From the NCBI GenBank assembly GCA_049968235.1, contig JBMFRC010000001.1, forward strand, positions 96,001-160,000: a DNA stretch of 64,000 bases, in the 5' to 3' direction. How positions within the stretch are numbered: the first letter of the stretch is position 1; each line of letters opens with the position of its first letter. The translations under genes and the position numbers were made by a program. Positions 21,901 through 64,000 of the stretch are shown here, one piece after another. A model generated the notes under the pieces. The model was not told where the DNA came from. It saw nothing but the letters and a program-made list of their open reading frames with translations, and made no database searches. The stretch comes from Candidatus Hydrogenedens sp. Its GTDB lineage: Bacteria > Hydrogenedentota > Hydrogenedentia > Hydrogenedentales > Hydrogenedentaceae.

Positions 21901-21919
21901 GTCTTATTTGTTTTTTCAT
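15998..21919 (-). CDS. Giant secreted protein (1,973 aa) at the pilY1 position of the minor-pilin operon. It is a candidate pilus-associated adhesin.
   Basis: It has a Sec-type signal peptide (NIPLFFLLLFITLHSSIKAETI) and a long uninterrupted ORF immediately downstream of the PilX_N-type giant gene, separated by a 3-nt gap. No catalytic motifs were recognised. The PilY1-like role is inferred from synteny only. Confidence 0.5.
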   Translation of the reverse strand: MKKQIRRKRGYKTDSVNEKLSKNIPLFFLLLFITLHSSIKAETIIHPGDNIIDIILNNPLETTFHIEADTTTPTIYEIKQPIIINRDITLKGVPNPTTPSSAILPTDVIIMGNNIFKGVIKNSNFELSPSTDWNILVDPPDPDDPAYSIIEENTLALSPTHLASFKGINEPFEPDQIYQNFQFTEDPLSGDPYLIAGYPEVWQDITFPKVLSAIDILQTQPIDFPKGTEPTGISYMENTLSLSAQLPIDLPNLVSAQLKFEIMRSADPVDSGDKVEIYIEMLNESTTYTIPLSAIPNPMNWITWNIDVTSLIQQYNPLDVPIVVLRISKLGIGENTVYLDDFRIFLDMGMSTAEIPIVCGSFDDVGCIGWSGEGNWSIGNDPLGLPPDRCLILGPSPISPREVWVEMFIKIKIFSGKTTDILRFYFDSMLMASEIFAEISPGNWIPIPEYRPDLIPNAGEYTRILVKIPSPLTNDNAKHTFHIESTVSPCALTPDSVDFNTTTFDIDDVRFLVGPLMNLRLPENGISVPNGNFEAGNDESWVLVTNPPIPERTIATIIKPTGGNKAPFCAELGGVPPAKISFQVKPVNVDGSQDFFKVWLDDDENIVTKIVYDSRVSGMPVDGVWTKIERWLVPPLLEESISSFSIHIKARIFSLNPGSSILFDDFCVSPYGELGVLIDPFGVCPDNAVQNPSFETNPDSAWNKNATALLMGPIHCYDKAYPVDCILPEPPITGTRALRFGAVNPLPVLSFWLKILDATSTSNTELEILVDDHVIKKIRANDTFYWNNYTLVMVDNELLPYLDMQPHSLTIRVAMTECDKTPVRFLIDDVCLGYEILMPAIPIVCLDNILLDPGFESGLATPWDATPDKSQIIQGGPTGFIDAHTGVWYAQLKSPKLDKRMLWQTGINIPPSATKLQFYVRVEKGTSPEQTKLKVYWDDTTGTPVWVKDAGSIEEGDWSLQEIPLLLVLPNPHTLYFVYENCRFLDQSIFMVDDIAIARDKFPLIEVHLNGNLCIENLSLTQGSAGILNIQGMSKVSRSFIGPKLDDGVVVMPDGKASILQTVIYGSLNDGVLNNGTTAIVQSTIYSNGGIGVESKGTGSTYVMATLVWNNTGGGLVCEPGASLISGWNLVYPPIITGVTEVGTPITIDPLSVHFYDSPWIGKLITPIPSRVSLEAVLNYVPNIFIPYLSLTSCASPSPYTDFENEVRDIRNIQVSADEVIIGGAELLWSYCNVSPTVPRSATGRERDIGIGNEFTVEVGIQGETLDDATLYLVPEEYVPLVKNNPNPLSQLNKLPTELKQVVVPIDTTRQRGRSVFTMDSLFVTDTDGVLSTTNGRARIYLRVNQTLMGIGTNQEYRINFYLEDTEFVIDTVPPRLRNDLYDATAVGFVIQNNDVISPPSQFSYPPNWGPAVLNPLAYSYGTISNQTSPTAQMFFNNLPQSPLEYILQAGYSDPYPEYNGSPRIVEVAGFITNRSNVSTTTVTPIIDLLTNGPVYTGLEPFRGLGCAFIAPLNDIGRVLSYTSNPGVEYFATTDPSQTEYTQPWQSALVKWRWFNLGFGLDWHIRMKFLVKDLSGNLVVENPAQQDALELWWMRDPVIEIISAPRIGAWDKDPHIQWKLTRSVSDKPVNSDPCLPIFGIRIWSAIDPFNYETSIWEAVDRFVGRWGWIINRESMDKNTPIVFADGSITTLNDILSDKRYCGALLMATIIGADEAGNVQPIPNILFGNRFNSLGTITGNNVPFCIWRNPCEFDIDTKLDINSWWNRSTADPTTWRFINYNFGEREFGSSRRVPLPALENACDYRIEVKLNMSCILPSEGFVSGRIGFDIQIFEDSNLVAGGTASMLYGDTTAEICIPSDFLSPNEASTRFNLNWYTSTPEFLNLPPTQCGSGVFNDRLGDEGSPEGGFRKREVKYDFVVRAFVQDTTTGALVADTTPAKVTVTIYPPAGSSERSITAPSQPKEEQRIKMFQRE

Positions 21920-27900: not shown

Positions 27901-29533
27901 CATAATTTTGGGTGTCCTCTTGATTCTTTTTGGTACGGTCATACATGGGGACACCCTGGTAAGGACCGCTGGGAACGAACCCTCTCAGCACAAACGGAGG
28001 TCCTGGTAACTGAATCGGTTCTGTATCTACTGATTCTTTAATTGTAAAGAAATCTATTATATTATTGGGACCTATATATGCGTAAGATTCAAAATTATTT
28101 ACTAACAAATCATAATCGTTGTCCAGACAATCTACATCATCCGCAGTTAAGGTATACCGCATTGAACCTGAAGGAGTATATCGAACCACATCTATAGAGG
28201 AAGGCATAATCACTTCCAGATACACTAAGTTTCCATTTTCATCGGGCACCATATCATTACGGTCTATTATCCCATCAGCATTCCAATCAACTTTCATCCG
28301 TAAACCCGGCAAAGGTGCTGTAAAAAAAACCTTTTGTTCGGCACTATCATCTACAATTCCATCACAGTTATTATCTAATCCATCATCACCTCCCCAATAT
28401 ACAAAAGCACCTACTTCAAACATTTCTTCGGGGTCCACTGTTTCATCGGGGGATTTATCTGTTGGGTCTTCTTGTGGTAATGCTTCATTCTGGAGGAAGA
28501 AAGGTCCCATTTCTTCATTAATCCCATTATCCGGTGTTTCGTCAATCAAACCATTTAAATTATTGTCCAAACCATCATTATGGCTCTGATGAATCTCTCC
28601 TGCAGAATCATAGACAACACCACTAAACAATTTATCTCCTGCCATTGGCATCCACACTGCATCTTTATAACCGTCACCATCTAAATCTACATCTGCCCAT
28701 GCATTTACCCATTCGGGAGTATACAAACTACTTGTAGCATAAGAATTTCCATTTCTGTCAAAACCTGTAAAAACAGGAGTACCATCCGGATTACGGACTG
28801 TTCCAAACATTGAGGGGAGAAGAAATGGTGCAGAACTTTTGGGAATGTCTCCTTCGCGAGTAATATCATCAAAAGTTTCTGCATTTACATTAAAACGGTA
28901 ATACAGAAAATTAGAGCCATCTTTTTGTGGAACCGAAACCCAACTGGATGAATTGGGTCCGGGAACAACTAATTCTGCATTTAAATCATAAAGAATAGGA
29001 GCATTGAAATCTTCAAGGCGTGGATAAAATAACCATTCTCGACTACGCGGTCCATTATATAACATTTCTGAGTAACCATCGGCAAAACGGACATACAAGA
29101 AACGATTTTCCGGGGGTAAACTTAACATAAACCCTTGCAAATTGGGGAAATTAATCCATAACCGTGCAATGTCAACATGCGGAATACTTCCCTTCCACTG
29201 CATTGAAGAACGGAGTGCAAAATATCCCCTACCTGCACCGGAATTTCTAAGTGCCCAGGGTTTGCCCGCAACCCAGGCACCGCTAAAAAAAGAACGCCAT
29301 ACATGGTCAGTCGAAGAAGCATAAGGGTGCTGATTTATATCGTTGTTCAATACAGAAATACCGATATTTAGTGCTCCTCTTAAAAGTTGGTCCGCCTGTG
29401 CTTGACGGAGCGATAATTCCGCTGTGTATAATTCACCCCTTGTTACAAAATAAAAAGTAAAACCGATGGCAAGAAGAATGGCAATAATTCCAATAGCAAG
29501 GACTAATGCCGCGCCCGTTTCAGGTTTTCGCAT
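21923..29533 (-). CDS. pilX: Giant protein (2,536 aa) with a PilX_N-type N-terminal domain (type IV pilus minor-pilin PilX-like) and multiple DxDxDG calcium-binding-loop motifs.
   Basis: The N-terminus MRKPETGAALVLAIGIIAILLAIGFTFYFVTRGELYTAELSLRQAQADQLLRGAL matches the PilX_N pattern, in which a hydrophobic helix is followed by 'A...AE.GL'. Repeated loops include DVDLDGDGYKD, DGLDNNCDGIVDD, NGLDDDGDGIIDNG, DGYDNDGDGGY and DGVDNNQNGVIDD. An AAGGAGAG Shine-Dalgarno lies 7 nt upstream of the ATG. The gene sits directly after the PilW-like gene, which is the canonical pilX slot. Confidence 0.6.
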   Translation of the reverse strand: MRKPETGAALVLAIGIIAILLAIGFTFYFVTRGELYTAELSLRQAQADQLLRGALNIGISVLNNDINQHPYASSTDHVWRSFFSGAWVAGKPWALRNSGAGRGYFALRSSMQWKGSIPHVDIARLWINFPNLQGFMLSLPPENRFLYVRFADGYSEMLYNGPRSREWLFYPRLEDFNAPILYDLNAELVVPGPNSSSWVSVPQKDGSNFLYYRFNVNAETFDDITREGDIPKSSAPFLLPSMFGTVRNPDGTPVFTGFDRNGNSYATSSLYTPEWVNAWADVDLDGDGYKDAVWMPMAGDKLFSGVVYDSAGEIHQSHNDGLDNNLNGLIDETPDNGINEEMGPFFLQNEALPQEDPTDKSPDETVDPEEMFEVGAFVYWGGDDGLDNNCDGIVDDSAEQKVFFTAPLPGLRMKVDWNADGIIDRNDMVPDENGNLVYLEVIMPSSIDVVRYTPSGSMRYTLTADDVDCLDNDYDLLVNNFESYAYIGPNNIIDFFTIKESVDTEPIQLPGPPFVLRGFVPSGPYQGVPMYDRTKKNQEDTQNYDYSFAKFAMPGNWNPADKSKFSAVREASYIEINKFKDSGGNPFLPGVQVFPGRGIYRDGIAGITRTINYTRLIPYIHITHTGEPVCDLVGRMAVYIEDESKKVNLNIAGGHYPIDFNFSAPNPLLASRLFHSYFIPGISSPWLIGYGLDTRYLPDMGVIRARKLWNLLTGAPGGQIDSSQSDYILNTNSNALYYDVAFPGYGAVDDNANAFLLFTNGLDDDGDGIIDNGVNDLLGILEGIDEPGEFQYTLPYVNKLAERDRVDNNTNNNVDESGELGDRIISTLDQISELSDYGTPGTKAFEKVKPVITTMGLSKNTQIRKFGTSLRGINPVNVNYTTPQQLASTIFLSEKPVPSINTMSWRMPMGEDAYYFAQGLRSYEHEWNTWFGADKNEVGFLFYYDDGTNEPISAINSTTNYVFPVDAVLKTMQLAVNLIDIRDTDVAQTRLTTEKVPDPMTSIEKRVYLPSQNINSLSPYEKGYHPSNFSLREIEQYAKNTLGEFNIDWVINDYWWSERVQNGTNSEDGTPMKDLRSISYTVAGVDSIRITELMVRPVRRVEAEVPVYQSIYNSYRSNYPPGIPLFLTDFEPLSNRFPDDNNHDIIPANPWNLANNNVLGKGNYYETNLPVFQYIDRTTVPPQTISVPNVVEYRIRATNSLPAGRYYLMLNTQNLSGEPTLQRGSNKRIKYAIKYCPINVNNPADTTDDTLIEPSILDDVFADPTIVTNDAVFQRVQDTWIGVNARGETTGMVFLPGQLESGTLIPPNYYWMDGILPENQPLSGKTFTITVPPYTPADGQANDYAVCIAFWLEQNPNNEPIALNFLDFSQEPDHEYIEITNISNNPIDLTGYTIEIGIPRDNSGVRTDPFKVTAKIGDENDVNNRYIIAPKGRLLLTFDSSSDLIGDKFDHYRDPNLTPASLIKRNGIGLCDVIPTAPVPPELEPLVGITTPFMALNETNNVFHREYINNGLEEDFTDYNGDGTPGDNPADNEIRSTPNDNNFNIVGPRKAWDRIVPLYAVEFPLIDGENTERRKTEEITTLNDLAKLVLQGGMLPDYPEHDGYDNDGDGGYLTGMGSYILGTLEKDGVDNNQNGVIDDRPTDFNNPLNVFFNEGVDEGRVEPGTTYTNGRVYGYGSYEQGMMPIFHLKDMSVIGGNVDVDFITDPYDQVQPINITTGFNYIGNPNLIEPYFGTDNDPPQWKYFVERRWNPGDCVVVALYDTKGNQVDGVSYNEYDVINRCIDDILPAPNSSMQLNADFSSWWIPDCMLWDFYRSLNRKSPELSGDRFGLSNRWEATDGFYDDWEESPHYLEQLVLVMLDNVAPNNFPLFQYTNNNPYRDKRDIDFVVNTYRGTPLGKSYTEIALSGKDFSFPIVSLPDSPVINGRSITLLYPYWNIEQRRDVGTIYTGTLSQVGIPIQREYLYSLYRLRQVFPNPDYRYLFDLNRQNLTLYPVVGGETFWRQVWTSANVLACQLQGKDELSRVLKGASSMITIAEKILTVGTADFIPIRPNPAETDVFPSGSNLTDILRCELASNTYPEAWVPLFLFMLPGEIYNYPRFVDGSLWNGTFPTPYNTLFNAQPNGSWLFNNNSAFGRPQIDINDIAQRWEIPKRIFAYVSSYRSVYPEQNRPEALFVWDVNDGLENGDYYVYINVVNEKQLRRLQQYDEQLHASGNPPYELFSQEFGKLWINKEYDTTRVRLALEIITDPAKARGLKPRGSTIETGLTHPDDWYRTEVGGYYEDVVDFSPNEDGIILYGQQAAASWQPQMVRVTQKFVALRVRNIGDTPCFLTHITLVPAKSSLHKINVNTIGPYIYTDGSQKRIFASSMCLPGFYYRSNILPKNQDLNNPVYGVNPIPPTNAVYADNVSDTILSAFQLSYLLMTNRPEYADGRYYLSPIELANTINSKYLLPLSVNTNYNGRIADVLPRYESVADHVSLRSDVFKITALVQLGYGVDGNNDGCYSYRTNDEFVVQSEARASVIYERSVPTARYEED

Positions 29534-51768: not shown

Positions 51769-52731
51769 CTAATCTTGTATTCTATAGATTATTTCCATCG
51801 GGTTTCCATTTCTAAGGATGGATACTTTAACAGAGGGAAGTGTAACATCACTGTATTTTTTTATCAAGTCTATTACCTTTTCATCACTATCAATAATATC
51901 GTCGTTTACTGCGGTAAGGACATCTCCTTCCTTAAACCCTAATTTTACTGCAATCGGAATTTCACTAATATTTTTTGCAGTAATGCCGAGTACTTTGCCT
52001 TCCGCATCTTTATACAATTCCGGCTTAACACGCGTAACCAAATCTGCATAACTTGCAAAAAAGTCCTGTACGATTTCATCTCGATTTAAATCTACTTGCT
52101 TTTTCTCAGGCTCATTCGTTTTTGCAGGTTTCGAATCAGTTTTACTGGGTGGTTTTTCCTCTTTTGCTTTTAATAATTCTAAAGATTTATCTTCTAATTT
52201 CAATCGTTCTCTTTTAGGGGGATGGGTTTTTTTATTTAACAATATCACTTCTTTAGGATATACCTCTTCTAAAACTACCTGCTCAACGACTTCCTGTCCA
52301 ATAGCAAAAGCAGCGGTAATTCTTTTGTCGGAATTTTCAATGAAAGCGGATGCAAATCGGTCTTTAGGAGACAGGGCAATGGTCCCTATTAATTTTAAGT
52401 TTAATTGAGTATCTTCAAGAGTATCCTGAGGAGACAGTTGTTCTGTTTTTTCTTCTTTTTTAGGAACTGTATCCTCTGTCCATCTACCTGCATTTCCAAA
52501 TAAACCTGATTGTGTTATTTTGTTGAAAAGACTTTTAGCATCAATATTTATTAACTCATTCTGCACAGTTCCTTCTTCCTCACCGGCTATACCTGTTTTT
52601 TTGGCTATTTTCTGGGCAGGATTGTAGGTATAAATAATAAAAAAGAAAACTCCAAGTGCAATAAGTATTGAAAAAATCAGTATGATATGAATAAGAAAAA
52701 ATAGTCTTTTAATTTCTAACGAATGAACCAT
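51769..52731 (-). CDS. gspC: GspC-like protein with an N-terminal TM helix, an HR (secretin-interacting) domain and a C-terminal PDZ-like domain.
   Basis: The TM helix is FFLIHIILIFSILIALGVFFFII. The HR-like segment is LNLKLIGTIALSPKDRFASAFIENSDKRITAAFAIGQEVVEQVVLEEVYPKEVILLN. The PDZ-like C-terminus is ITAKNISEIPIAVKLGFKEGDVLTAVNDDIIDSDEKVIDLIKKY. It is the first gene of the gspC-M array. Confidence 0.6.
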   Translation of the reverse strand: MVHSLEIKRLFFLIHIILIFSILIALGVFFFIIYTYNPAQKIAKKTGIAGEEEGTVQNELINIDAKSLFNKITQSGLFGNAGRWTEDTVPKKEEKTEQLSPQDTLEDTQLNLKLIGTIALSPKDRFASAFIENSDKRITAAFAIGQEVVEQVVLEEVYPKEVILLNKKTHPPKRERLKLEDKSLELLKAKEEKPPSKTDSKPAKTNEPEKKQVDLNRDEIVQDFFASYADLVTRVKPELYKDAEGKVLGITAKNISEIPIAVKLGFKEGDVLTAVNDDIIDSDEKVIDLIKKYSDVTLPSVKVSILRNGNPMEIIYRIQD

Positions 52732-52914: not shown

Positions 52915-55332
52915 TTATTGTTTCTTTCTCACAAGGCTTTTGAGATATAACAAATAGTCTTCAAGCGATATATTCGTATTGGTTTCATCCATTTTCTGAA
53001 CAGAAGACATGGATTGAATTGCCTTTTTATCTGTATTATAGAAAATGCTGTCATACTCACTATAGGGTTTTACAAATTGTTTGCCCGTTTGAGGATTTTC
53101 TGTAACTACAGTTACACTTCTTGTTCCTGCATATAAAGTCCATTTACTGCTTTTAGGCAAATAACGCAAATAAATAATGGCTTTGTCTCCGACTTTAAAT
53201 TCGGGCATCTCCGAGCAAACCATAGCATAGCCATTCACTCTACCCCCGGGGATGGTAAAGATTACAGAACTATTCTCGTTAACAGGTCCTTTTATTGTTT
53301 CTATCACTTTAACTTCAACATCTGTGTATATTCTCATATTTTCTGTCATATAACTGTTTAGCGAAAGGACTTCTGCATTGACTACTGCATCGGATTGGTT
53401 CGTAAGTTCGTCTGTATTAAGAAAGGCGATTCTCGCAGAAGCATTAGAAAGAAATCCAAAAATAGACACTGCAATAATAATGAAAAGTATTGTGGTTTTT
53501 GCTTTTGTTTTAACAGATTGCATTTTCTTTATCTTCCTCCATATAACAAGCAGAATCATAATTGCTATGAGGGAACTCCAGATATTATTTTTAACTAACC
53601 ATGCAAGACTATATACGGTGCCGGCAAATATATATCGCATCATTTCTGATCTTAATATTACCTTAGAAATCATCGGAGCCATTGTATAATATATATCAAC
53701 AAAGGCAATTCCCATACCTGAATTCATCAAATAATTATCTCTAAAAATTCTCAAATCGTTAGACAAAGAAATCGAACCTAATGTGCCAGTAGTCGTTGTC
53801 GTTGTAGTAGTTCCTGTTGGGACTTCAATAATATTCATAGGACAGACATCATTGGGGTCTCCAAACATAGGTTTTCGATTTGTCCTCATTTGAGGGAGTG
53901 TTTTACCTGTAGTACTACTTACAACCACATTTTTTGTAAAACTCCATACCAATCCGGTACCTGCATCTTTACTGCTTACATCCAGTACATTTTCAACTTC
54001 GTGAAACACCTCTGACATAAAGTTCGTTTGATAATCTGTATCAGCACGAGTTGTTACAGAATAACTATTGGGTCCCTGAATACTATCTACATCAGAGGGG
54101 GGTATTCCTTCTGGAGCCTGACGGTCTAATCCCGTTCCGTTCAAAGCATTTAAGGTTAATGTGTAGGAAGGGGTAAACAATTCGCCATCTTTACCGGGAA
54201 CTTCCATGGTTTTCCATAAACCGATGAGATTAAATTTACCTTGAAGTTGCTTATTAATGAGTGGCTCGTATAAACCTACCATTGTACTGAATAAAGGCAC
54301 ACGCGAGGTATTGGGATTATTATCTACATCTGCCCAGGCGACAACATGTCCACCGGGGAGTGGAATAGAAGGAATTCCAGACCCTCTTCGTGTTCTGCTT
54401 CTTGCTTCATGTTTTATATCAAAGAAATTTTCCTGAGCACCCCTTGGATAAAGCCATGAAATACCTGAAATATCATCCGGAGCAAGGTCTTTCCCGCCAT
54501 CTTCTCGTTGACCATTCGGTAGTTCTACTTCAAAATAAATAGGGAACATAGTCGGTGTTGCTCCGATATACTGATGCAGACCATCGGGCATTGTCCTCCA
54601 CACGACAGGATTTTCTATAAGGTAAGAAGGTAATTCATCCCCTTCATTTAAATAAATAGCTCTTAAATTGTTCAAGGGGGTATGGTCTAATCCTAAAAAA
54701 TGCCCCAATTCATGAACAAGTGTTCCTTTTAAATCTGCTAATGGTTCATCACCGGATTCTGAATTATATCGGTGTGCCGTTGCAGATATAACAATATCAC
54801 GGTCAACAACTGTCCCCGCAGAAATAGGGTATATCTGCCCGTTATGTTCGTATACTGTATCGGTAACTGTAAAAAGTGTGAGTGTTACTCCCAATATTCC
54901 TCCACCCACATCCACTGTTTCCGGGTCCGGTTCAACATTCTCACCGGTATCATCTGCTTCGGTAACATACATGGATATCGTGGGCAGGGAATCGGGCACT
55001 GTCAGGGAAATAGGGTCTTCGTAATAACCTATAATCCGAAAGCAGGCGTAGGAAGTTGTAACTTCCTCCCAGACCTTTAATGCTTCTTTAACTTTTTCTA
55101 TTTCATCATCGGTAAAGCCTCTTTTCCCTCTTTCTATATAAATACCGATACCTTCTCCTGTGGTTATTTTACCATCGTTGTTCGTATCAAATTCGTAGAA
55201 GGGCCATCGTGCCAATCGTAATACATTAAATGCATCAAATCCACCGGAGGGGAAAAATGCATAACTATTCCATTGGCAAATAGAAATAATTAATAATGTT
55301 AATGAATATACAAATAATAGTTGTTTTTTCAC
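52915..55332 (-). CDS. Secreted metzincin-type zinc metalloprotease (805 aa; probable GTG start). A C-terminal region contains two hydrophobic segments and a domain of about 180 aa.
   Basis: It has the signal peptide MKKQLLFVYSLTLLIISICQWNSYA and the zinc motif LVHELGHFLGLDHTP (HExxHxxGxxH, M10/serralysin-like). A Thr-rich linker (TTTTTTTTGT) follows. The C-terminal hydrophobic segments are ...IWSSLIAIMILLVIWRKIKK followed by MQSVKTKAKTTILFIIIAVSIFGFLSNASA|RIA. An AAAGGAGT Shine-Dalgarno lies 7 nt upstream of the GTG. Confidence 0.65.
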   Translation of the reverse strand: MKKQLLFVYSLTLLIISICQWNSYAFFPSGGFDAFNVLRLARWPFYEFDTNNDGKITTGEGIGIYIERGKRGFTDDEIEKVKEALKVWEEVTTSYACFRIIGYYEDPISLTVPDSLPTISMYVTEADDTGENVEPDPETVDVGGGILGVTLTLFTVTDTVYEHNGQIYPISAGTVVDRDIVISATAHRYNSESGDEPLADLKGTLVHELGHFLGLDHTPLNNLRAIYLNEGDELPSYLIENPVVWRTMPDGLHQYIGATPTMFPIYFEVELPNGQREDGGKDLAPDDISGISWLYPRGAQENFFDIKHEARSRTRRGSGIPSIPLPGGHVVAWADVDNNPNTSRVPLFSTMVGLYEPLINKQLQGKFNLIGLWKTMEVPGKDGELFTPSYTLTLNALNGTGLDRQAPEGIPPSDVDSIQGPNSYSVTTRADTDYQTNFMSEVFHEVENVLDVSSKDAGTGLVWSFTKNVVVSSTTGKTLPQMRTNRKPMFGDPNDVCPMNIIEVPTGTTTTTTTTGTLGSISLSNDLRIFRDNYLMNSGMGIAFVDIYYTMAPMISKVILRSEMMRYIFAGTVYSLAWLVKNNIWSSLIAIMILLVIWRKIKKMQSVKTKAKTTILFIIIAVSIFGFLSNASARIAFLNTDELTNQSDAVVNAEVLSLNSYMTENMRIYTDVEVKVIETIKGPVNENSSVIFTIPGGRVNGYAMVCSEMPEFKVGDKAIIYLRYLPKSSKWTLYAGTRSVTVVTENPQTGKQFVKPYSEYDSIFYNTDKKAIQSMSSVQKMDETNTNISLEDYLLYLKSLVRKKQ

Positions 55333-55398
55333 GGTCCGAACTCCTTTCTTTCGTCCGGAATTATCAATCTTTGTTTTTTCATTTATAATTTCATCTCC

Positions 55399-58300
55399 TT
55401 ATGTTGTCTGTTTTTTCTTTGCAGACAGGAGAAACAGCAAAACTGCAATTACCAGACCTATATCAAAGGCATAAGCACTGAAACTTGATTGTTGAGTATC
55501 TTGTCTTTCAGCACAACCAAACATATAAAAACGTTTTTTAGGTGTCTGGGCATCATTTGCATATTCGAAACCTCCTACGAGCGTTTTTTCTGTCCCCTGG
55601 TCTATATTTTTCACAGTAACATCCAGAGATCCTACTGTTGGAATACCGCCCAATGGGAAAGTTATCAGGATGGATGTCCCGTCTGCTGATACAGATTGGA
55701 CAGGCATTAATGTATTTCCGAAATATACCTGTATATTTTCAATCGTTGAGAAATTGGATCCTTGTATGGTTACCGGAAATTCTTTTGATGTACCTTTGTT
55801 CGGATTTATGGAATTGATAATAGGTATCCGTCCCACAGGCTTCGATGTAAGTGTAAATAAATCGGTCCGTGAGGCTTCATCTCCGTTAGAAGTGTTCCGT
55901 ACCAATAAAACTATAGGCTCCATAGGAACAACTCCGGGCATTGTACTAACGGCTATAGTTATGCTGGTATCCGTTGCCTGAATAACACGAACTTGATAAC
56001 CGGATAAACGCACTACAGGGTTGTTTCCAAAATTCCTTCCATATATAACCAATGTAATTTCCTGCCCTTCAAGGGTCTGTATGGGTAATTCAGAGATAGA
56101 TGTGGATTCTATTACCAGTGAAGATGGGGCTATGATTCTATTTATAGAATTAATTACACCGGTTCTCCGTTTCTTGGTGCAATGGGAACGAACCCAGTTT
56201 ACACCCGAATTATCGGCTTTTGCTCCTGCTTTTTTCCCATCCATATAATATCGAACAGGAGGCTCTTTGAAATAGGTAATGAATCCCAGTCCTCTAACGC
56301 CCCATGGAAATTCTCTAAATTTACGGAAATCATTTCTTTGCTCACCTGACAGACGAGCCCAGGTATCGGGGTCAGGTTCTGTTGGTGTATTAGGTCCCCA
56401 GTTAACCACTCCAATTCTGAAATTCACACCGGTTCTCATTTTATCTGAGGCACGTAATATAACAAAGAAATCGGGACCATAAAAAGGATTCTTGTTATTT
56501 GAACCAAACGATGTAGGTATCCATTGACGATTACGAGATTGTTGCACACGAGGAATAGGCACATCATCTGTACCCGGACTGGAAAACACAAATTTAACCT
56601 GGGTGGCTTCACCTGTTTGACCGATATAATAAGGTGTTGCATCTAAGGGTATTGGAATATCTATGTCTGCATCAAAGATGCCATTCCTGTTTCTTGGGTC
56701 AGCGTCATTATCTCGATATAAAGCAATACCACTAATCTGTGGGTCAATATGAAGAGGTAACAAATCATTCAATGGATTAAAGTTCGCATTTGTACCTTCA
56801 TCATAAAATTCCAATGTAACTTCTTCTAAGAAACTGGGATTGCGTTCAATCCGCCAGGAACCATTGCGTGGAGTCCCGCTCAGTAAATACACCTGATTCG
56901 TTGTATTCCCCACAATTTCATAAGATTCAAAAGCAGAATCTATCAAGAAATCTCCAATAAGTGAGTTCGGTTCAAAAGTCACACCGGATACTGTAAATGT
57001 TTTTTCAGAACCTACACCATTTGTTCCTTGATAAAGACTATCTTCGGGTCTGTTCGTTGAAATATCAAATCCCATTACACAAAAGGAGGGACCTCCGGGA
57101 ACAATTGCTTGTTGTTGACTTGTAAAGTCATATATTTGCACGGGTATATTTGTCTCAAGCATATCGTTCCCGTAGAAGTCCTGGACAGGGTCTTCTTCCG
57201 GACTTGATTTAATATATGCAGTGGAACTAGTATTAACCTGTGGGAAGAATTGAATACCTGCTTTTTTCTCCGAATCGCTTCTTCCGGGTAGTGTTGCTGG
57301 TATTACCGCTCTGAAGGATTGGAATCGTTTCCCTTTATCATTCAGTCGAACAGTAATGAAGAGGTCATCTCCGGGATTATTTCCGGTTTCATTCGTTATT
57401 TGTTTCTCTAAGGATTGATTTGTGGTATTTGTCTCTTCGCTCGATTTCTCTTTTATATTCTTTTCAAATATGACATCGCTGAAATCTATATTTCCACATT
57501 CTATTGGAACAGTACCAAAAAGGAAATTCATAAAATCATCCGTAGGTAATCGCCACTTTTCTTTTGGATACATGGTAAGAACCCATGCATAATCTCGCTG
57601 GTCGATTAGACCATTACCATCCATATCATCCGGAGAACCATCTCCATCAATATCAATAGGTTCAGGCCAAGAACTCCATTGTAAATTATTCAATGGGACA
57701 GGCTTATCTCCTATATTTGGCATTGGCAAATCCCAGTAGGTTGCCAATAGTTTGGGTTCAAAGAAAATTCCATTCTGGTCGGTATCTTCCCAAAGCAAGA
57801 CACCCGAGTCGTAACTCTTACCATCCGGGTCCAGTGGCATAAGTAAATCCGGAGAGAAATCAGGTCCCCAGAACGCAACAACAATTTTTGCTACAGATGG
57901 GGCTTCCTGCCCTTCATTGTTTACGACATAATCACCCGAACCTACCAAATTAATACCTAACATAGCGGTATGTTCCGAGTTAATATCTGTTTTTTGTGTA
58001 AGTAATCTTGCTCGATTAAACTCCGAAGCCCACTGACTTGCCCGCGGATATTCATTAGGACCTATATTGCGAGACCATGTAGTATAATCCGGTAAGGCAG
58101 GTTGGTCTAAGGGATTTACATACGCAGAGGAACGCGTGTCCGGACCCAAAATATTCACATGGTCAAACGGAACTGTCTCATAAGCATATTGCCCTCTACT
58201 ATGAGTATAGTCAAAACTAACGGTAAATGTGTTATTATCTGTAATAGAATAAGTAAATCCACCAAATTCACGCCATCTTGTTACACCTACCGAATGTAAA

Positions 58301-61300
58301 TTCAAGAATTGTGTCCTTATCTTTCCTTCGGGGTCCATCCACTTATCAAAATCTTTTGGATAATCGTATAATCCGACGGAATAGCCAAGACAATTTCCTA
58401 AATTAATAGAACCGGAACCATAGAATATATCTGATTCAAATTTATAAGGGGAATCGGATGTATAAGTTAACACTAAGTCATGGACATCCAACCCTACTTT
58501 CATAGGTTTTGTAGATTTTTCATTTACTGTTCGTTGATTCCACCACGGTTCTTGTTGTCCCCATCTCAAATCTGATTGCCAGGGAGGACCTCCCCCATCC
58601 AAAAGTCCGCCTAATGGAGGAATCTGGGAATCTACATAAATACCTCCTGTAGGTTTACCATTATTATCAACCCGTCTTGGCTCTATAAAGACGCGGAAAT
58701 CTGCACCCATCATAACACCATTACCATCAGGTACGGTCTGAGAAACATCCTTAAATCCACTGTCTGTTCTTATTACAACGAAGTAATCACTCGCATATTC
58801 ACTTCCTGTAGCCACACCAACATAATTATCCGGTATCGGCTCAACAAAACCGGAGACATCGTTATCACTGGGAGTAACATATCTCCTTCGTCCATAGAAG
58901 AAACGAAGATTTATCTTCCACCATGGGTCTCCTCCTCCCGGTGGGAATGGTATGTATTCCCAATTGAGTAGTTGACCTGTAGGCAAAATAAAACCTTCAG
59001 ACAGATTAATTCCGATTACCGTCTCGGGTAATAATGGATAGTCACCGTTTAACTGGACTCCTTGTCCATCAGGAAGTGGTGTCGGTGGGTCAAATTTACC
59101 GTTATTATTTGTATCATGCCACACCCAAACACCATTAAAAACAATATCCTGGAATAACACCTTGTCACTATTTATCAAAAGTCCATTTATTTGAGTAGAA
59201 ACTTTATCCAAAGATTCACGAGGGTCAAAACCTCCATTGCCGGGAGGACCGTATGGGTCTGCTCCAATATCTGTAAAAATAACATTTACCTCTCGAAGTT
59301 GTGACCATATCCTCTTCTCTGCGGTATAACGCGGTCCTACTAACGTGTCATATCCATCTGCATGCACAGATTTTGTAGAATGGACATTTATTCCTATCAC
59401 AGGTTTCCATGTATCCATAGCAACCAGGCGACGGAACGACAATAGTTCTCCGGCATACATATATAACAGTTGGTTAAACTTTGACCACTTGGGGCGTGTA
59501 TGTTCTGCAAGAGGTGTATATAACCGCGTCGGATAATTCCATGCATCAAAACCACTATACTCCCATTGCTCAGGATTGATAATACCGTTCAAATCCCAAA
59601 CAGTAAAACTGGCAGAATAGCCTGTGTCGGATATCATTTTTTCTGGTTTTTTCGCATCATAGAAGTTTGGGTCATACTCATCTATTGCATCTCCATCTGT
59701 ATTTCTTGGAAAGATACCATTAAGTTTTATCATCTCCGCACGAAGAACATCACAAGCCATAGTAATCTGGCTTCGCCATGTGGCAGATGTTCGAACGGCG
59801 ACAATATAGGAATTTCCATCAAATCCTTCATCTTGATTGGGAGCCGTTACAACAGGATAATCCGGTTTATCTGGTGTTCCACTCCCAATAAAGTTCAGCC
59901 TATAAGTAATACCCTCCGGAGAATATGGATTTTGCGTCAGAATTTGTGCTAATGGCGTTCCATCCGAATTCCACTTAAATAACAATTCATCATAATAGGG
60001 GTCTAATTGATTATTATATTCTTCTTTCTTTGAATAGTTTTCCCTGAATAAGGCAAATTCTAATAAATCAGAAATATTGGGACCTCCCTGATTCCCATAA
60101 TTTAACTCACCTTGACTTCTTTTATCCGCTCGAATTCGATATACTAACGATTTCAAAACTCGTGGAGCCGGATTTTCCGGGTCATAGCCCATTGTAAAAT
60201 TAAATAATGGAACCCAGTCTGTCAAGGGCAAAAGTGCTTCTTTATCTTTGATTATAGATTGGACAGAGAATTTGGCACTTGGCTCCTCTTGATTTTCACC
60301 TTCTGTTGTTCCTTCTGTTTGCCCTTCTCCTTCTGTCGTTGATGGACAACCAATACATGGACCTACAGTTATATAATTAGGTATCAGATAACATAGTTTC
60401 ATGGTCTCATTAGTATTTACATTTTTAAATGTTACTTCAAGAGTGACAGAATAGAATCCTTCTTTAGTGTATCTATGTATCGGGTTCTGTTGTGTGGATT
60501 CTATAGCAGGGACATTATCTCCAAAACTCCAGGACCATGCAGTAACTTTCCAGATATCTGTTCCGACGGACATATCCCTAAACTGCACATCCAGGCCCGG
60601 TTCTTTTTCACCCATAGCATCCGGCGTTATGTATCCTGAATTGGGTTGGGCAGTGAAGCTAACATAGGGAGCACTTAATATTTCTATATAATCTCTTTTA
60701 ATTTTAGATGCACTTAATCCATTCTTATCTTTTATAACGACGCTGACGGTATATGTTCCTGCCTGGGAATATGTATGTGTTGGATTTCTATCTGTGGATT
60801 GTGTACCATCTCCGAAATCCCACTGAACGGAAGCCAGCGTTATTCCACTACCCGGAACTAATGTAAATTTAATTTGTCCTCCGGGTATCTGTCTCTGTCT
60901 ATCCGCCGTAAAATCAACGGTTGGTACCTGCAAAGCCACTATTGTCTTGGTACGACCGGAAGCAACCGGATTTGTGCGAATCCAGTTTAATCCCAATCTG
61001 TCCGATTGAGCCTGGCTCATGTCCACTTCCGCTCGTGCTGTCCATTTGCGGAGTCTATCATTATATGCCCAATAACGATAAATAAGTGGGTCCTTAAAGA
61101 AACTAATAAACCCTAATGCACGATTTCCCCATGGGAATTCGGAATATAGGTAGAACAATCCATCGTTAATATCACCGGCACCCGGATATATACGAACAAA
61201 ATTATCCGGGTCGGGTTCCGTAGGGGTATCTCCACCAAACGAGACTATTGCTGCCTGGAATGCATCTCCTGCACTTATTGCAGATGATGTTCGGATTACC

Positions 61301-64000
61301 ACAAAGAAGTCGGGACCGTATCCATTTTCACTGGGACAATCTCCAAAGCATACCGGAATAGGTTGCCGGAGCCGAGGCTGAGAAATATACGGTGTTCCTC
61401 CTTGTGTTGGGTCTCGTCCAACACTATTATCGGTACCGGGTGAAGAGAACACAAAGCGAACCTGATAACGTGGGTCTCCCGGACGGGAATACCACACTGG
61501 TGAATTATCCAATCGTAATGGCAAATCAATATAATCAACAGTTCCATCATTATTAATAATCGGTGGGTCAAATACTCCATTTGTATTTCTCGGGTCCCAA
61601 TCATTGTCCCGCCAGATTGAAACACCACTTTCTTTCCCATTTGCAGGGTCTTCTTCATTTAACGGTAATAAATCGTTATATGGGTCAAATCCACGAACTG
61701 TTGTTTGCGTATTCGCATTATAAAATTCAACAATTACCTGCTCTAAGAAGGTAGGGTCTTTAACCACATACCAGGGACTACCATTCTTCGGAGTTCCTGC
61801 TCTTAGCCGTAAAGTCCTTCCCTGAGCACCTGTAATTTCAAAGGCTTCCACCCGTTTATTTACTTCCTGGTCCGCCTGACCATAAGCGATCAGCCACATA
61901 CCCACTATATTCTGTGTCCATGCACCATTAGAATAGAAATCTTTAAGGCTCGTTTCAGGAATAATAATATCTCGAGCATCAGGACTGAATGCCTTATCTC
62001 CAGCAGATGCACCGGTACCATTTCCGTAAGCAATTAAATTTTCAACACGGTTCATTGATGCGTCAATACCTAAAATAGCAATAGGCTGTCCACCGGGAAT
62101 TATAACCGGTGTTGTAATACCACTGGTTGAAGGAGGAAGTAATGCATCCGTCATATCTACAATTCGTGACGGTACACTCACCTGCAACATATCATGTCCA
62201 TAGAAATCCTGCAAACCACCTTCTTCCGGATTTGTCTTAACAACAGCTCCTCGCGATGTTAAACCACCCTGAGAAAACACAACCCCTGCGAATTGTGCTG
62301 TTGTAGGAGTTCTATCCGGTAACCGTGCAGGAACTAAACAACGAAACTCCTCAAAAGCACTTACTGTATCGGATGTTCGGATTACCACAAATAAATCATC
62401 TCCCCTATGTCCTCCTGCTGTAAGTGCCTTTGCATCCTTTTCCATCGGGACAACATTTGCAACACCTTCATCATCATATTCTGGAGATACTATATCCAAA
62501 AGCAAAGATTTCTTTGCCGAAGATGTTATCTTTTCTGTATCTTTAACATCTTTTATTATTTCCGGAGATAACGGAAGTGATAAATTGCTATTTGCTTCTA
62601 AACTCTTTGCAGTTATAGGTGGATTGGCTCCTCCGGAGCGTATATCGGATTGAGGCACTGTCCATGGCTGTGCAGGTGTTAATTTTAATACCCATGCAAG
62701 GTCTTTTAATCCATCCCATGCTTTCTTCTGGGCAGAAGTAAGTTGCGGTCTTTCCAGGTCAGATAAATCAACATTTCCATCTGTTACAATACCGTCACCA
62801 CTCAAATCATCTGGAATATTATCTCCATCTAAATCTACAGGTTCCGGTTTAATACCCCATTCTAAGGAGCCCGGAACCAGAGGGACGATTCTATCCGTAA
62901 AGACAGGAACAGATACAGTATCTAAAAACACAGGACCTGTAAACACCCCATCCGCATTTGTATCCTCATAAAGCAAGACACCTGAAGATGGGAGTGTTCC
63001 ACCTGTGCTATCCAATGGAGTTAAGTCAGATGGGTCAAATTCCGGTCCCCAGAACGCAACATATATGCTATTTAAAGCTACGGGACCTGAACGATTTACT
63101 ACGGGGTCATCTGCACCGGATAAGTTAAATCCTAACACTGCTACGGGTTGCGATTTATATTCTACCTTCTGTCTCAAAATTCGAGCGGAACGGGACTCAC
63201 CATTGGGTCCTGAACTTACTGTGTTATTGCCCCATCCTGCTGGCCAATCTGCCATTTGCGGATAACGATTGCGAACCATTGTGTTTTGTGTAACTAACCA
63301 GGGACCCCGTTCTACCGCATTGGCTCGTCCTCCTCTAACACCATAAGGATACTGAGAGACCGATAATTTGTTCCCATTCATCATATAAGGAGATATATAG
63401 GCTGAATGTCCATTCTCAAGTTCTAATATATTCCCACTGTTACTCTTTATATAGTATCTACCTCCATTATTATCTATAAACCACCAGCCCGATAAATCTA
63501 CTCCTGCGAAATTACCATCTAATAATTCTGCATAATAGACATCATCCTTGTATCCTGCCCAGACACCTTGCCATGTTTCTATAACATTAGGGTCTTCGCT
63601 TGGGTCGAAATGATAGTATTCAAGGTTATCCCCAAGTGTCCCTTCATCTGCATATACAATACAACGCGAACCAAAGTTTACAAGACCTAATCTCATGGGC
63701 CATGTATAATAATCCGGTAAAGTTGGTTGAATAAATGGTTTAGGATATGCTGTACTTCGTGGAGTTAAAGAACGAGGTAATAATGGGTCATCAAAGGTAG
63801 GTTCAAAAGGTACGGTTTCAAAAGCATACTGAAACGATGTTAACTCATCTAAATTAGGAACAGGCTGACCTGTCCAGAAAATCGCCTCTGAATAGTCCGG
63901 TAAGATACCCGGATTATATAAATATCCTAGCGCAGAACTGGAATTTAATAAAGGATTCGTATTGGGGTCAAGAATCAGGTCAGAAGGAGGTGCTAATCCC
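55399..64000 (-). CDS. Giant surface protein, 5'-truncated at the window edge and longer than 2,860 aa. It contains PKD domains, IPT/TIG domains, internal super-repeats and a C-terminal TM helix plus Lys-rich tail.
   Basis: Manual translation shows the reading frame stays open from the annotated Met (63696) to the window end at 64000, where the protein reads ...NPGILPDYSEAIFWTGQPVPNLDELTSFQYAFETVPFEPTFDDPLLPRSLTPRSTAYPKPFIQPTLPDYYTWPMRLGLVNF.... The PKD domains are WDFGDGTQSTDRNPTHTYSQAGTYTVSVVIKDKNG and WSFGDNVPAIESTQQNPIHRYTKEGFYSVTLEVTF. IPT-like modules lie near the C-terminus. The C-terminal tail is FGCAERQDTQQSSFSAYAFDIGLVIAVLLFLLSAKKKQTT*. Confidence 0.75.
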   Translation of the reverse strand, partial: GLAPPSDLILDPNTNPLLNSSSALGYLYNPGILPDYSEAIFWTGQPVPNLDELTSFQYAFETVPFEPTFDDPLLPRSLTPRSTAYPKPFIQPTLPDYYTWPMRLGLVNFGSRCIVYADEGTLGDNLEYYHFDPSEDPNVIETWQGVWAGYKDDVYYAELLDGNFAGVDLSGWWFIDNNGGRYYIKSNSGNILELENGHSAYISPYMMNGNKLSVSQYPYGVRGGRANAVERGPWLVTQNTMVRNRYPQMADWPAGWGNNTVSSGPNGESRSARILRQKVEYKSQPVAVLGFNLSGADDPVVNRSGPVALNSIYVAFWGPEFDPSDLTPLDSTGGTLPSSGVLLYEDTNADGVFTGPVFLDTVSVPVFTDRIVPLVPGSLEWGIKPEPVDLDGDNIPDDLSGDGIVTDGNVDLSDLERPQLTSAQKKAWDGLKDLAWVLKLTPAQPWTVPQSDIRSGGANPPITAKSLEANSNLSLPLSPEIIKDVKDTEKITSSAKKSLLLDIVSPEYDDEGVANVVPMEKDAKALTAGGHRGDDLFVVIRTSDTVSAFEEFRCLVPARLPDRTPTTAQFAGVVFSQGGLTSRGAVVKTNPEEGGLQDFYGHDMLQVSVPSRIVDMTDALLPPSTSGITTPVIIPGGQPIAILGIDASMNRVENLIAYGNGTGASAGDKAFSPDARDIIIPETSLKDFYSNGAWTQNIVGMWLIAYGQADQEVNKRVEAFEITGAQGRTLRLRAGTPKNGSPWYVVKDPTFLEQVIVEFYNANTQTTVRGFDPYNDLLPLNEEDPANGKESGVSIWRDNDWDPRNTNGVFDPPIINNDGTVDYIDLPLRLDNSPVWYSRPGDPRYQVRFVFSSPGTDNSVGRDPTQGGTPYISQPRLRQPIPVCFGDCPSENGYGPDFFVVIRTSSAISAGDAFQAAIVSFGGDTPTEPDPDNFVRIYPGAGDINDGLFYLYSEFPWGNRALGFISFFKDPLIYRYWAYNDRLRKWTARAEVDMSQAQSDRLGLNWIRTNPVASGRTKTIVALQVPTVDFTADRQRQIPGGQIKFTLVPGSGITLASVQWDFGDGTQSTDRNPTHTYSQAGTYTVSVVIKDKNGLSASKIKRDYIEILSAPYVSFTAQPNSGYITPDAMGEKEPGLDVQFRDMSVGTDIWKVTAWSWSFGDNVPAIESTQQNPIHRYTKEGFYSVTLEVTFKNVNTNETMKLCYLIPNYITVGPCIGCPSTTEGEGQTEGTTEGENQEEPSAKFSVQSIIKDKEALLPLTDWVPLFNFTMGYDPENPAPRVLKSLVYRIRADKRSQGELNYGNQGGPNISDLLEFALFRENYSKKEEYNNQLDPYYDELLFKWNSDGTPLAQILTQNPYSPEGITYRLNFIGSGTPDKPDYPVVTAPNQDEGFDGNSYIVAVRTSATWRSQITMACDVLRAEMIKLNGIFPRNTDGDAIDEYDPNFYDAKKPEKMISDTGYSASFTVWDLNGIINPEQWEYSGFDAWNYPTRLYTPLAEHTRPKWSKFNQLLYMYAGELLSFRRLVAMDTWKPVIGINVHSTKSVHADGYDTLVGPRYTAEKRIWSQLREVNVIFTDIGADPYGPPGNGGFDPRESLDKVSTQINGLLINSDKVLFQDIVFNGVWVWHDTNNNGKFDPPTPLPDGQGVQLNGDYPLLPETVIGINLSEGFILPTGQLLNWEYIPFPPGGGDPWWKINLRFFYGRRRYVTPSDNDVSGFVEPIPDNYVGVATGSEYASDYFVVIRTDSGFKDVSQTVPDGNGVMMGADFRVFIEPRRVDNNGKPTGGIYVDSQIPPLGGLLDGGGPPWQSDLRWGQQEPWWNQRTVNEKSTKPMKVGLDVHDLVLTYTSDSPYKFESDIFYGSGSINLGNCLGYSVGLYDYPKDFDKWMDPEGKIRTQFLNLHSVGVTRWREFGGFTYSITDNNTFTVSFDYTHSRGQYAYETVPFDHVNILGPDTRSSAYVNPLDQPALPDYTTWSRNIGPNEYPRASQWASEFNRARLLTQKTDINSEHTAMLGINLVGSGDYVVNNEGQEAPSVAKIVVAFWGPDFSPDLLMPLDPDGKSYDSGVLLWEDTDQNGIFFEPKLLATYWDLPMPNIGDKPVPLNNLQWSSWPEPIDIDGDGSPDDMDGNGLIDQRDYAWVLTMYPKEKWRLPTDDFMNFLFGTVPIECGNIDFSDVIFEKNIKEKSSEETNTTNQSLEKQITNETGNNPGDDLFITVRLNDKGKRFQSFRAVIPATLPGRSDSEKKAGIQFFPQVNTSSTAYIKSSPEEDPVQDFYGNDMLETNIPVQIYDFTSQQQAIVPGGPSFCVMGFDISTNRPEDSLYQGTNGVGSEKTFTVSGVTFEPNSLIGDFLIDSAFESYEIVGNTTNQVYLLSGTPRNGSWRIERNPSFLEEVTLEFYDEGTNANFNPLNDLLPLHIDPQISGIALYRDNDADPRNRNGIFDADIDIPIPLDATPYYIGQTGEATQVKFVFSSPGTDDVPIPRVQQSRNRQWIPTSFGSNNKNPFYGPDFFVILRASDKMRTGVNFRIGVVNWGPNTPTEPDPDTWARLSGEQRNDFRKFREFPWGVRGLGFITYFKEPPVRYYMDGKKAGAKADNSGVNWVRSHCTKKRRTGVINSINRIIAPSSLVIESTSISELPIQTLEGQEITLVIYGRNFGNNPVVRLSGYQVRVIQATDTSITIAVSTMPGVVPMEPIVLLVRNTSNGDEASRTDLFTLTSKPVGRIPIINSINPNKGTSKEFPVTIQGSNFSTIENIQVYFGNTLMPVQSVSADGTSILITFPLGGIPTVGSLDVTVKNIDQGTEKTLVGGFEYANDAQTPKKRFYMFGCAERQDTQQSSFSAYAFDIGLVIAVLLFLLSAKKKQTT

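Follow-up and report, generated by a model that had tools for sequence, protein, structure and literature searches.

A conserved metzincin precursor of Candidatus Hydrogenedens with a predicted internal signal peptide and a C-terminal domain of predicted TIMP fold

How many proteins are made from one gene of Candidatus Hydrogenedens sp. in which a protease is followed by what looks like the beginning of a second secreted protein? The gene lies at 52915..55332 on the minus strand of a stretch of 64,000 nucleotides (contig JBMFRC010000001.1 of assembly GCA_049968235.1), here called the window, to which the coordinates refer; all features of the gene are on that same strand. It encodes a precursor of 805 amino acids (aa) with a metzincin protease part, a transmembrane (TM) helix, a basic stretch, a second hydrophobic segment ending in A-x-A and a further domain. 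The initial annotation, made from the letters of the DNA, left the choice between a stop codon lost between two genes, by which the protease had become fused to a small secreted protein (perhaps an inhibitor or a chaperone), and a protein held in the membrane by a helical hairpin with both domains outside. We find that 52915-55332 is one genuine gene, conserved across the phylum Hydrogenedentes. The reading we favour, with a probability of roughly 0.6, is that it encodes a two-product precursor: signal peptidase would free a domain resembling the tissue inhibitors of metalloproteinases (TIMPs) beside the membrane-tethered metzincin, as its probable latency or inhibitor subunit. Firm in this argument are the single open reading frame (ORF) and its conservation, the hairpin, the statistics of the signal peptides, the folds, and the co-occurrence with proteases.

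In the ORF listing the gene starts with GTG at 55332-55330 and stops at 52917-52915, and direct reading of the sequence finds a Shine-Dalgarno motif, AAAGGAG (55341..55347), 8 nt before the start. The strings on which the initial annotation was built (HELGHFLGLDH, the poly-Thr run, the TM helix with its basic stretch, and the signal-peptide-like segment up to ASA|RIA) were all found at their places in this ORF. A search of 5.8 billion proteins listed 120 homologues, and the named sources among these are all Candidatus Hydrogenedentes. More than 110 full-length orthologues were found (760-890 aa, 97-100% query coverage, identity down to 36%), one of which, P0001 from an independent NCBI metagenome-assembled genome of Candidatus Hydrogenedens, has the same unbroken 805-aa ORF with about 3 substitutions. 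The counts given below are based on 118 sequences for the hairpin and the A-x-A, 115 for residue invariance and 109 for the N-terminal signal peptides. The arrangement of TM helix, basic loop, signal-peptide-like segment and A-x-A is present in 118/118 usable orthologues, which is far beyond chance. Throughout the alignment the C-terminal half has the same order: an invariant Cys (DVCP[LM]N), a variable Thr/Gly-rich linker, helices of the pattern LRxFRDxxL...G..VD.YY..P, a hydrophobic helix, an Arg/Lys cluster, a second hydrophobic stretch, A-x-A and a conserved domain. Comparison of orthologues for a stop codon or a frameshift had been set beforehand as the test, and since more than 110 of them keep the uninterrupted architecture with its hairpin the gene is a genuine single one.

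Only three segments reach TM-grade hydropathy when the family is averaged: the N-terminal signal peptide, a helix called TM1, and the internal segment (TM2). TM1 (IWSSLIAIMILLVIW, aa 584-598, 53539..53583) is the putative stop-transfer helix; it forms a hydropathy peak both in the protein and in the family mean, and its hydrophobicity is conserved. Together with the basic stretch it reads IWSSLIAIMILLVIW-RKIKK, the ending of IWSSLIAIMILLVIWRKIKK, with aa 603 as its last residue. The basic loop (RKIKKMQSVKTKAK, aa 599-612, 53497..53538) has a net charge of +7 and would be cytoplasmic, serving also as n-region of the internal signal peptide; across the orthologues its net charge runs from +3 to +8 (mean 4.8) and its median length is 7. 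The h- and c-regions follow (TTILFIIIAVSIFGFLSNASA, aa 613-633, 53434..53496), and signal peptidase I is predicted to cut between A633 and R634 (bases 53434 and 53433); MQSVKTKAKTTILFIIIAVSIFGFLSNASA|RIA corresponds to aa 604-636 of the protein. At this site Ala is found at -3 in 106/118 and at -1 in 110/118 orthologues, position -2 is variable, and Pro, Ser or Gly are common at -4 to -6. Measured from the loop to the -1 Ala (h- plus c-region) the internal segment has a median of 20 residues. The N-terminal signal peptides of the family agree with this, again with a median of 20, and they carry Ala at -3 in 83/109 and Ala or Gly at -1 in 109/109.

By its sequence, then, the second hydrophobic segment bears every mark of a Sec signal peptide that can be cleaved and does not look like an ordinary TM helix. 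The topology suggested by hydropathy and the positive-inside rule has the protease outside, followed by TM1, the basic loop inside, the second segment, and the C-terminal domain outside. Of the hairpin proposed at the outset this topology stands, supported by hydropathy and loop charge; the near invariance of the A-x-A makes cleavage of an internal signal peptide more likely than a hairpin left uncut. Cleavage by signal peptidase I at the internal A-x-A, as predicted from this conservation, we regard as a good bet.

The domain which would be set free covers aa 634-805 (52918..53433) and would begin with RIAFLN. Earlier put at about 180 aa, it counts 172. Structure prediction, proposed from the start as a check on this part, gave for the 172 aa modelled alone a predicted local distance difference test score (pLDDT) of 93.3 and a TIMP/NTR fold: an OB-type beta-barrel with flanking helices, whose nearest structural neighbours are all NTR/TIMP modules. 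The best was N-TIMP-3 (score 11.1, with 115/121 of its residues aligned), followed by agrin NtA (10.1), meteorin NTR (9.9), PCOLCE NTR (9.8), the C345C modules of C3/C5 (8.3-9.8) and TIMP-1 (8.2), while generic OB folds scored at most 7.5. Foldseek, which is independent of this comparison, ranks NtA, TIMP-2 and TIMP-1 first. Sequence relatives were found neither in Pfam (including its TIMP and NTR families) nor in NCBIfam, and a profile search of PDB sequences gave nothing relevant. According to the model the domain is TIMP-like in fold and not in sequence family. The guess of an inhibitor or chaperone, made in the initial annotation, gains real support from this fold.

The domain is widespread in bacteria. 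A word-indexed profile search recovered four fragments only; an exhaustive search of 1.84 billion cluster representatives with the C-domain profile matched 14,764 of them at E <=1e-3 and 4,487 at E <=1e-10. Stand-alone proteins of about 165-215 aa begin the domain right after an ordinary N-terminal signal peptide, and in P0236, P0238 and P0257 the order is signal peptide, TIMP-like domain, TIG, Peptidase_M10. These stand-alone and N-terminal homologues match the profile with E 1e-23 to 1e-26, and to judge from their sequences it is signal peptidase that makes their N-terminus. P0210 has two TIMP-like copies together with a metzincin domain. A genome scan with a narrower sub-alignment of the stand-alone proteins gave 44 loci, all from Bacteroidota, of which 42 were analysed; here a stand-alone TIMP-like gene of about 187 aa is followed by a giant ORF on the same strand. 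The giant neighbour contains HExxHxxGxxH in 19/42 loci, or in 18/23 when at least 1,850 aa of it could be read, and at locus L031 it carries Pfam Peptidase_M10 at aa 1819-1907 in addition to Fib_succ_major (FISUMP) and fn3. The TIMP-like domain is thus tied to matrixin-like proteases in three independent architectures, and among the arrangements found only the Hydrogenedentes protein has it C-terminal, behind an internal signal peptide. No match to the domain was obtained by tblastn against phage genomes. In the Bacteroidales/Rhodothermales (L031 1756-12510; 40+ other loci, L007-L050) the genes form a conserved cluster coding for a TPR protein (~329 aa), a TPR-CHAT caspase-like protein (~960-1070 aa), the TIMP-like protein (~187 aa) and a giant secreted protein (1,990 aa or more) that combines FISUMP, fn3 and a matrixin-like domain.

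The occurrence of the domain as a stand-alone protein equipped with a signal peptide makes an ancient fusion of two neighbouring genes the best account of the Hydrogenedentes gene. One would have coded for a protease with a TM helix and basic tail at its C-terminus, the other for a small secreted TIMP-like protein, and loss of a stop codon would have joined them. Since a signal peptide placed directly after this helix and tail completes a hairpin, such a fusion would be topologically neutral and the products after signal peptidase would be unchanged. The suggestion of a pair fused by a lost stop codon can therefore not be kept as a recent event or an error in this genome, where it is contradicted by more than 110 unbroken orthologues. 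As evolutionary history it does fit, with a stand-alone domain that has its own signal peptide and, in Bacteroidota, a separate gene adjoining matrixin-like genes. A general rule may follow from it: where one gene codes for a C-terminal TM helix with basic tail and the next begins with a signal peptide, the two could join with topology and products undisturbed.

The two-product precursor would work in the following way. Sec would export the protease part by means of the N-terminal signal peptide, and TM1 would stop transfer and leave the basic loop in the cytoplasm, as hydropathy and the positive-inside rule suggest. The internal signal peptide would restart translocation, and signal peptidase I would, on the strength of the conservation statistics, cut after A633. 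This cut would release the TIMP-like domain to the periplasm with R-I-A-F as its free N-terminus and in a 1:1 ratio to the membrane-tethered protease. The freed domain would bind the tethered protease, and its most likely part there would be that of a latency or inhibitor subunit, which would make up for the missing propeptide. The module would act together with a giant surface protein encoded directly upstream, and it appears to head the operon of the type II secretion system (T2SS) in this lineage.

TIMPs and the serralysin inhibitor AprI, the latter also discussed in PMC8235301, insert the N-terminus generated by signal peptidase into the active site of their protease. An internal signal peptide conserved inside a membrane hairpin would be an unusual solution to this need for a free N-terminus. 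In the 67 catalytically intact members of the family the cut would expose x-[I/L]-A-[Y/F] (59/67, 40/67, 57/67), and by analogy a hydrophobic residue at +2 would match residue 2 of TIMPs, the one inserted into the S1' pocket. That the domain inhibits the protease, as its modelled fold and its co-occurrence with M10-like domains suggest, we place slightly below an even chance.

A number of observations weigh against this reading. The domain lacks the Cys1-x-Cys3 of TIMPs and their disulfides; it has one Cys, which is not conserved, and the predicted N-terminus is R-I-A-F, the +1 residue being variable in the family. P0210 and P0214 carry tandem or internal TIMP-like copies without a free N-terminus. 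Animal NTR modules such as agrin NtA, PCOLCE and C345C are often non-inhibitory binding domains. Furthermore, the zinc ligands HExxHxxGxxH are lost in 51/118 orthologues (for example QSAGSLLGLGY and HHVGQLLGLAY, among P0035-P0119), in at least 4-6 independent events on a rough neighbour-joining tree. As predicted from this loss, about 43% of the "protease" family are pseudoenzymes. They keep GL..TPLNNL, the Met-turn region, the hairpin, the A-x-A and the TIMP-like domain, and the inactive paralogues each adjoin a giant protein of their own. With A-x-A and domain retained in 51/118 zinc-less orthologues, the TIMP-like domain must be doing more than blocking catalysis. It agrees with the inhibitor that the large old inactive clade has G/Q-Q-x-P at the new N-terminus and that the recent zinc-site losses still have I-A-F/Y, but this link between active state and N-terminal motif is confounded by phylogeny.

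The alternative which survives best takes up these points. It holds that the TIMP-fold domain is a binding or assembly module, for instance towards the giant protein or the cell envelope, and that the (pseudo-)metzincin is an adaptor or maturation factor for the giant protein. The giant gene lies directly upstream in 10/10 loci examined, where it codes for a homologous protein; it, and not the T2SS, is the invariant genomic partner, and for this reason a structural or adaptor role towards the giant protein is a serious alternative, or an added function. It also agrees with this proposal that 43% of the orthologues are dead by motif with all other features kept, and that many animal NTR modules bind rather than inhibit. 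The Tim protein of Listeria, described below, is a substrate of its metzincin and not a demonstrated inhibitor (PMC8235301), which counts in the same direction and against the inhibitor. The proposal has less to say about the link of the domain to M10-like domains in three unrelated architectures, about the latency that an enzyme without a propeptide must somehow obtain, and about an N-terminal motif which is kept only where the zinc site is intact now or was so recently. As a replacement for the inhibitor we consider it doubtful.

In the next alternative TM2 is a permanent second TM helix, the two domains stay covalently joined at the periplasmic face and the TIMP-like domain acts in cis. The out-TM1-in-TM2-out topology would be identical to that of the two-product precursor. 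The AlphaFold2 model of the full-length protein, with a predicted TM-score (pTM) of 0.81, suggests a defined arrangement of the domains, and the relatives with internal TIMP-like copies manage without a free N-terminus. As a TM helix, however, TM2 has a short hydrophobic core (about 13-15 aa without the c-region), and there is no obvious reason why an otherwise variable helix should conserve Ala at -3 and -1. The near-invariant A-x-A with its helix breakers is statistically indistinguishable from the N-terminal signal peptides of the same proteins, and the stand-alone and N-terminal forms begin the domain exactly at a signal-peptide cut site. A hairpin that is never cut is accordingly the less probable of the two fates of this segment, and we find it improbable.

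Still less can be said for two cistrons in one frame. Met604 (ATG, 53523-53521) is preceded at a distance of 12 nt by GGAGG (53540-53536), and this element (53521..53540) is a possible clade-specific secondary start, from which the Hydrogenedens clade would obtain an additional, free secreted TIMP-like protein. The same GGAGG precedes ATG604 in P0006 and P0003, and a weaker GAAGG in P0008; it is confined to the nearest relatives. Against this, a spacing of 12 nt is long, the GGAGG stems from Trp-Arg codons (AGG/AGA being the expected Arg codons in an AT-rich genome), and an internal start is not required to explain the architecture. As a feature of the whole family it is ruled out, with Met at this column in 13/118 orthologues; for the clade it is a slim chance. 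Finally, sequencing or assembly error, or a very recent mutation, might have removed a stop codon or a frameshift that separated two genes. All that speaks for this is a superficial resemblance to a C-terminal anchor with Met and a signal peptide after it, and the idea is ruled out for practical purposes by the unbroken frame in orthologues from independent assemblies; the short homologues (P0107, P0056, P0121-P0124 and most 170-260-aa matches) are contig-end fragments or have frameshifted tails, and parts of TM1 or the loop are still present in them.

TIMP/NTR inhibitors are regarded as an animal (eukaryotic) feature. The system closest to the two-product precursor in its logic is Mtz-Tim of Listeria monocytogenes, a secreted metzincin and a TIMP-like lipoprotein from adjacent genes. 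Mtz itself cleaves Tim there, some 50 aa from the Tim N-terminus, and the study could trace no further report of TIMP-like proteins in bacteria (PMC8235301); it is also the single bacterial case that our literature search brought up. What the two systems have in common is a genetic link between a bacterial metzincin and a protein of predicted TIMP-like fold, the export of both partners and a processing step, here predicted, that yields a TIMP-like fragment. The Listeria system has two genes and a cut by Mtz; the present one has a single ORF, a TM hairpin and a predicted cut by signal peptidase I, and the likeness is one of fold and not of sequence comparison. From the vertebrate pairs of matrix metalloproteinase (MMP) and TIMP (MEROPS M10A and I35) it differs in having no Cys1-x-Cys3, no disulfide framework, no Pfam TIMP or NTR match and no cysteine-switch propeptide, and in being one polypeptide.

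In Pseudomonas the inhibitor AprI/Inh (MEROPS I38) protects the periplasm before AprA is secreted by the type I route. This is likewise a bacterial M10-type metzincin with a co-encoded small beta-barrel protein, whose counterpart here is a presumed inhibitor; AprI is an eight-stranded barrel encoded by a gene separate from aprA, whereas the Hydrogenedentes domain has an NTR fold and shares one ORF with its protease. As Thony-Meyer and colleagues are said to have found in 1991, the FbcH cytochrome b/c1 precursor of Bradyrhizobium japonicum contains an internal signal peptide after a TM segment and is cut by signal peptidase into two mature proteins. FbcH resembles the present protein as a bacterial membrane polyprotein with an internal signal peptide; it belongs to a respiratory complex without a protease, and in our case cleavage is a prediction.

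A literature search gave no description of a metzincin with a TIMP-fold domain behind an internal signal peptide, nor of a large stand-alone bacterial TIMP-like family, and on CFI-box-CTERM, bacterial internal-signal-peptide polyproteins and prokaryotic NTR domains nothing usable was found. What emerges is a large unannotated bacterial family of predicted TIMP fold which is repeatedly wired to matrixin-like proteases, and with it a way of testing how an uncultured phylum regulates its secreted proteases. One may go further and suppose that TIMP-style silencing is an old and widespread bacterial invention (about 15,000 clusters without family annotation). The Hydrogenedentes form would then be a self-inhibited "polyprotein zymogen", its internal signal peptide being kept solely to make the inhibitor N-terminus and to deliver the inhibitor 1:1 in the periplasm before the T2SS sorts the protease and the giant protein to the surface. 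This extended scheme is speculative and in our view unlikely to hold in full.

The protease part begins with a predicted Sec signal peptide (aa 1-25, MKK...NSYA|FFP, 55258..55332), visible as a hydropathy peak and with the family consensus AxxAxA|FFPxGGF. The catalytic domain (about aa 26-300, 54433..55257) is matrixin/serralysin-like and has no propeptide: a matrixin (M10A) propeptide with the cysteine switch PRCGxPD is absent from the protein, in which the conserved and ordered FFPxGGF directly follows the signal peptide. The extended metzincin motif HExxHxxGxxH/D is present as HELGHFLGLDH (aa 207-217, 54682..54714), which is intact in 67/118 orthologues and lost in 51. Met262 in ATPTMFP (54547..54549), invariant in 115 sequences, is from its position the presumed Met-turn. 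With Pfam PF00413 (Matrixin) the protein reaches 23.0 bits against a cutoff of 24, and several orthologues carry a precomputed PF00413 match. The predicted fold is MMP- or serralysin-like, with structural matches to MMP-2, -9, -12 and -20 and to alkaline protease. The scores, with identity in second place, were 9.1 and 16% for EcxA, 8.9 and 18% for Pseudomonas alkaline protease, 8.8 and 22% for MMP-2, 8.5 and 24% for MMP-9, and 8.1 and 23% for MMP-20. At the start of the mature protease domain is an EF-hand-like calcium-loop motif (FDTNNDGKITTGEG, aa 48-61, 55150..55191) with D49, G54 and G61 invariant; from weak Pfam EF-hand matches and weak matches to the EF loops of NCS-1 it is probably a structural calcium site.

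A beta-rich middle domain (about aa 301-500, 53833..54432) is modelled with pLDDT >90 and ends in DVCPMN (aa 495-500), and W333, W373, Y390, W463 and C497 are among its invariant residues. The full-length AlphaFold2 model, made with 115 sequences, has pLDDT 85.4 at the pTM given above, with low confidence only in the linker and the hairpin. It should be mentioned that one homologue, P0136 (1163 aa), has an insert of about 350 aa after the Met-turn region with a second zincin-like motif, HEMTHGLGF, and still ends in the hairpin, ADA|RILY and the TIMP-like domain.

Between the middle domain and the hairpin lies a Thr-rich low-complexity linker (about aa 506-521, 53770..53817) with a TTTTTTT run at about aa 512-519; its pLDDT is below 50 and its length and composition vary among orthologues. 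It is followed by amphipathic helices (aa 526-581, 53590..53757) carrying the LRxFRDxxL...G..VD.YY..P pattern, which resemble CFI-box-CTERM (NCBIfam NF041770). The match scores 40.4 bits at a cutoff of 40 and covers aa 526-572 and profile positions 18-64 of 69. Positions 1-17, the CFI start, are unmatched, and the invariant C497 of DVCP[LM]N is 29 aa upstream, beyond the variable linker. R528, R531, D532, G541 and Y549 are invariant, and the region is helical in the model and too weakly hydrophobic for TM helices. Extra TM helices in this region were considered and ruled out by the hydropathy of the family; weak Pfam matches to DsbD_TM and DUF4131 are due to hydrophobicity alone. Orthologue P0091 is named CFI-box-CTERM domain-containing protein by PGAP. 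The match is internal and not C-terminal, with 233 residues after it (TM1, internal signal peptide and folded domain), a warning to annotators that matches to "CTERM" sorting domains can be internal.

The upstream neighbour is the giant PKD/TIG surface protein (55399..64000, minus strand), whose frame is open to the edge of the window. The gene is longer than the listed ORF of 2765 aa, the frame being open upstream of ATG 63696, and the proteins of close relatives have about 3,820 aa. The window protein is 43% identical over 1664 aa to the giant protein beside an inactive paralogue. In 9/9 loci the giant protein ends in a C-terminal tag made of a hydrophobic residue or Gly plus an invariant Cys, some 12-18 aa, a TM helix and a basic tail. 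The resemblance of the metzincin's TM helix and basic stretch to its neighbour's tail had been pointed out before and is real, the giant protein of the window ending in a TM helix and KKKQTT. In homologue P0133 (1835 aa, from a metagenome) a giant-protein tag (..GCGPAEE..TM..SRRRFRS) runs in frame into a metzincin-like signal peptide and FFPKGG start, a junction which is either a second natural TM/basic/signal-peptide fusion or a sequencing artefact of the contig.

CPBP proteases act on sorting signals of the MYXO-CTERM type; in those window ORFs that were scanned, Pfam showed no gene for a CPBP/Rce1-type sorting protease or for a signal peptidase. MYXO-CTERM proteins are surface proteins with TM-anchored C-terminal tags for which cleavage followed by T2SS export is predicted (PMC11980579), and the tripartite, Cys-containing C-terminal sorting tags of the MYXO-CTERM/myxosortase kind take the T2SS route (PMC11980579; bioRxiv 10.1101/2023.06.07.544157). 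The metzincin shares with such tags, and with CFI-box-CTERM, an invariant Cys, a TM helix, an Arg/Lys cluster and a locus next to T2SS genes, and the giant protein has the classical version. Unlike in these tags the Cys of the metzincin is about 87 aa before the TM helix, and the tag is not C-terminal, 202 aa coming after the basic cluster.

Downstream, the 183-nt gap before gspC was confirmed: the next ORF (51769..52731, minus strand) has T2SSC and PDZ domains in Pfam and is followed by gspD, E, F, K and L. No minus-strand terminator was predicted in this gap. At 6/10 loci gspC-gspD are found downstream, namely in the window, in three close relatives and in two distant active orthologues; they are absent beside one active and three inactive paralogues. 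Export by the T2SS, suggested earlier from the position of the gene, is plausible by analogy with MYXO-CTERM and GlyGly-CTERM proteins. Further downstream of the T2SS operon the window holds a second, type IV filament-like set (7420-39805, minus strand) with three further T2SSE ATPases, T2SSF, several N_methyl pseudopilins, PilM and a TPR-secretin. Two giant ORFs belong to this set, one without a family match at 15998-21919 (1973 aa) and one at 21923-29533 (2536 aa) which has a weakly GspK-like N-terminus.

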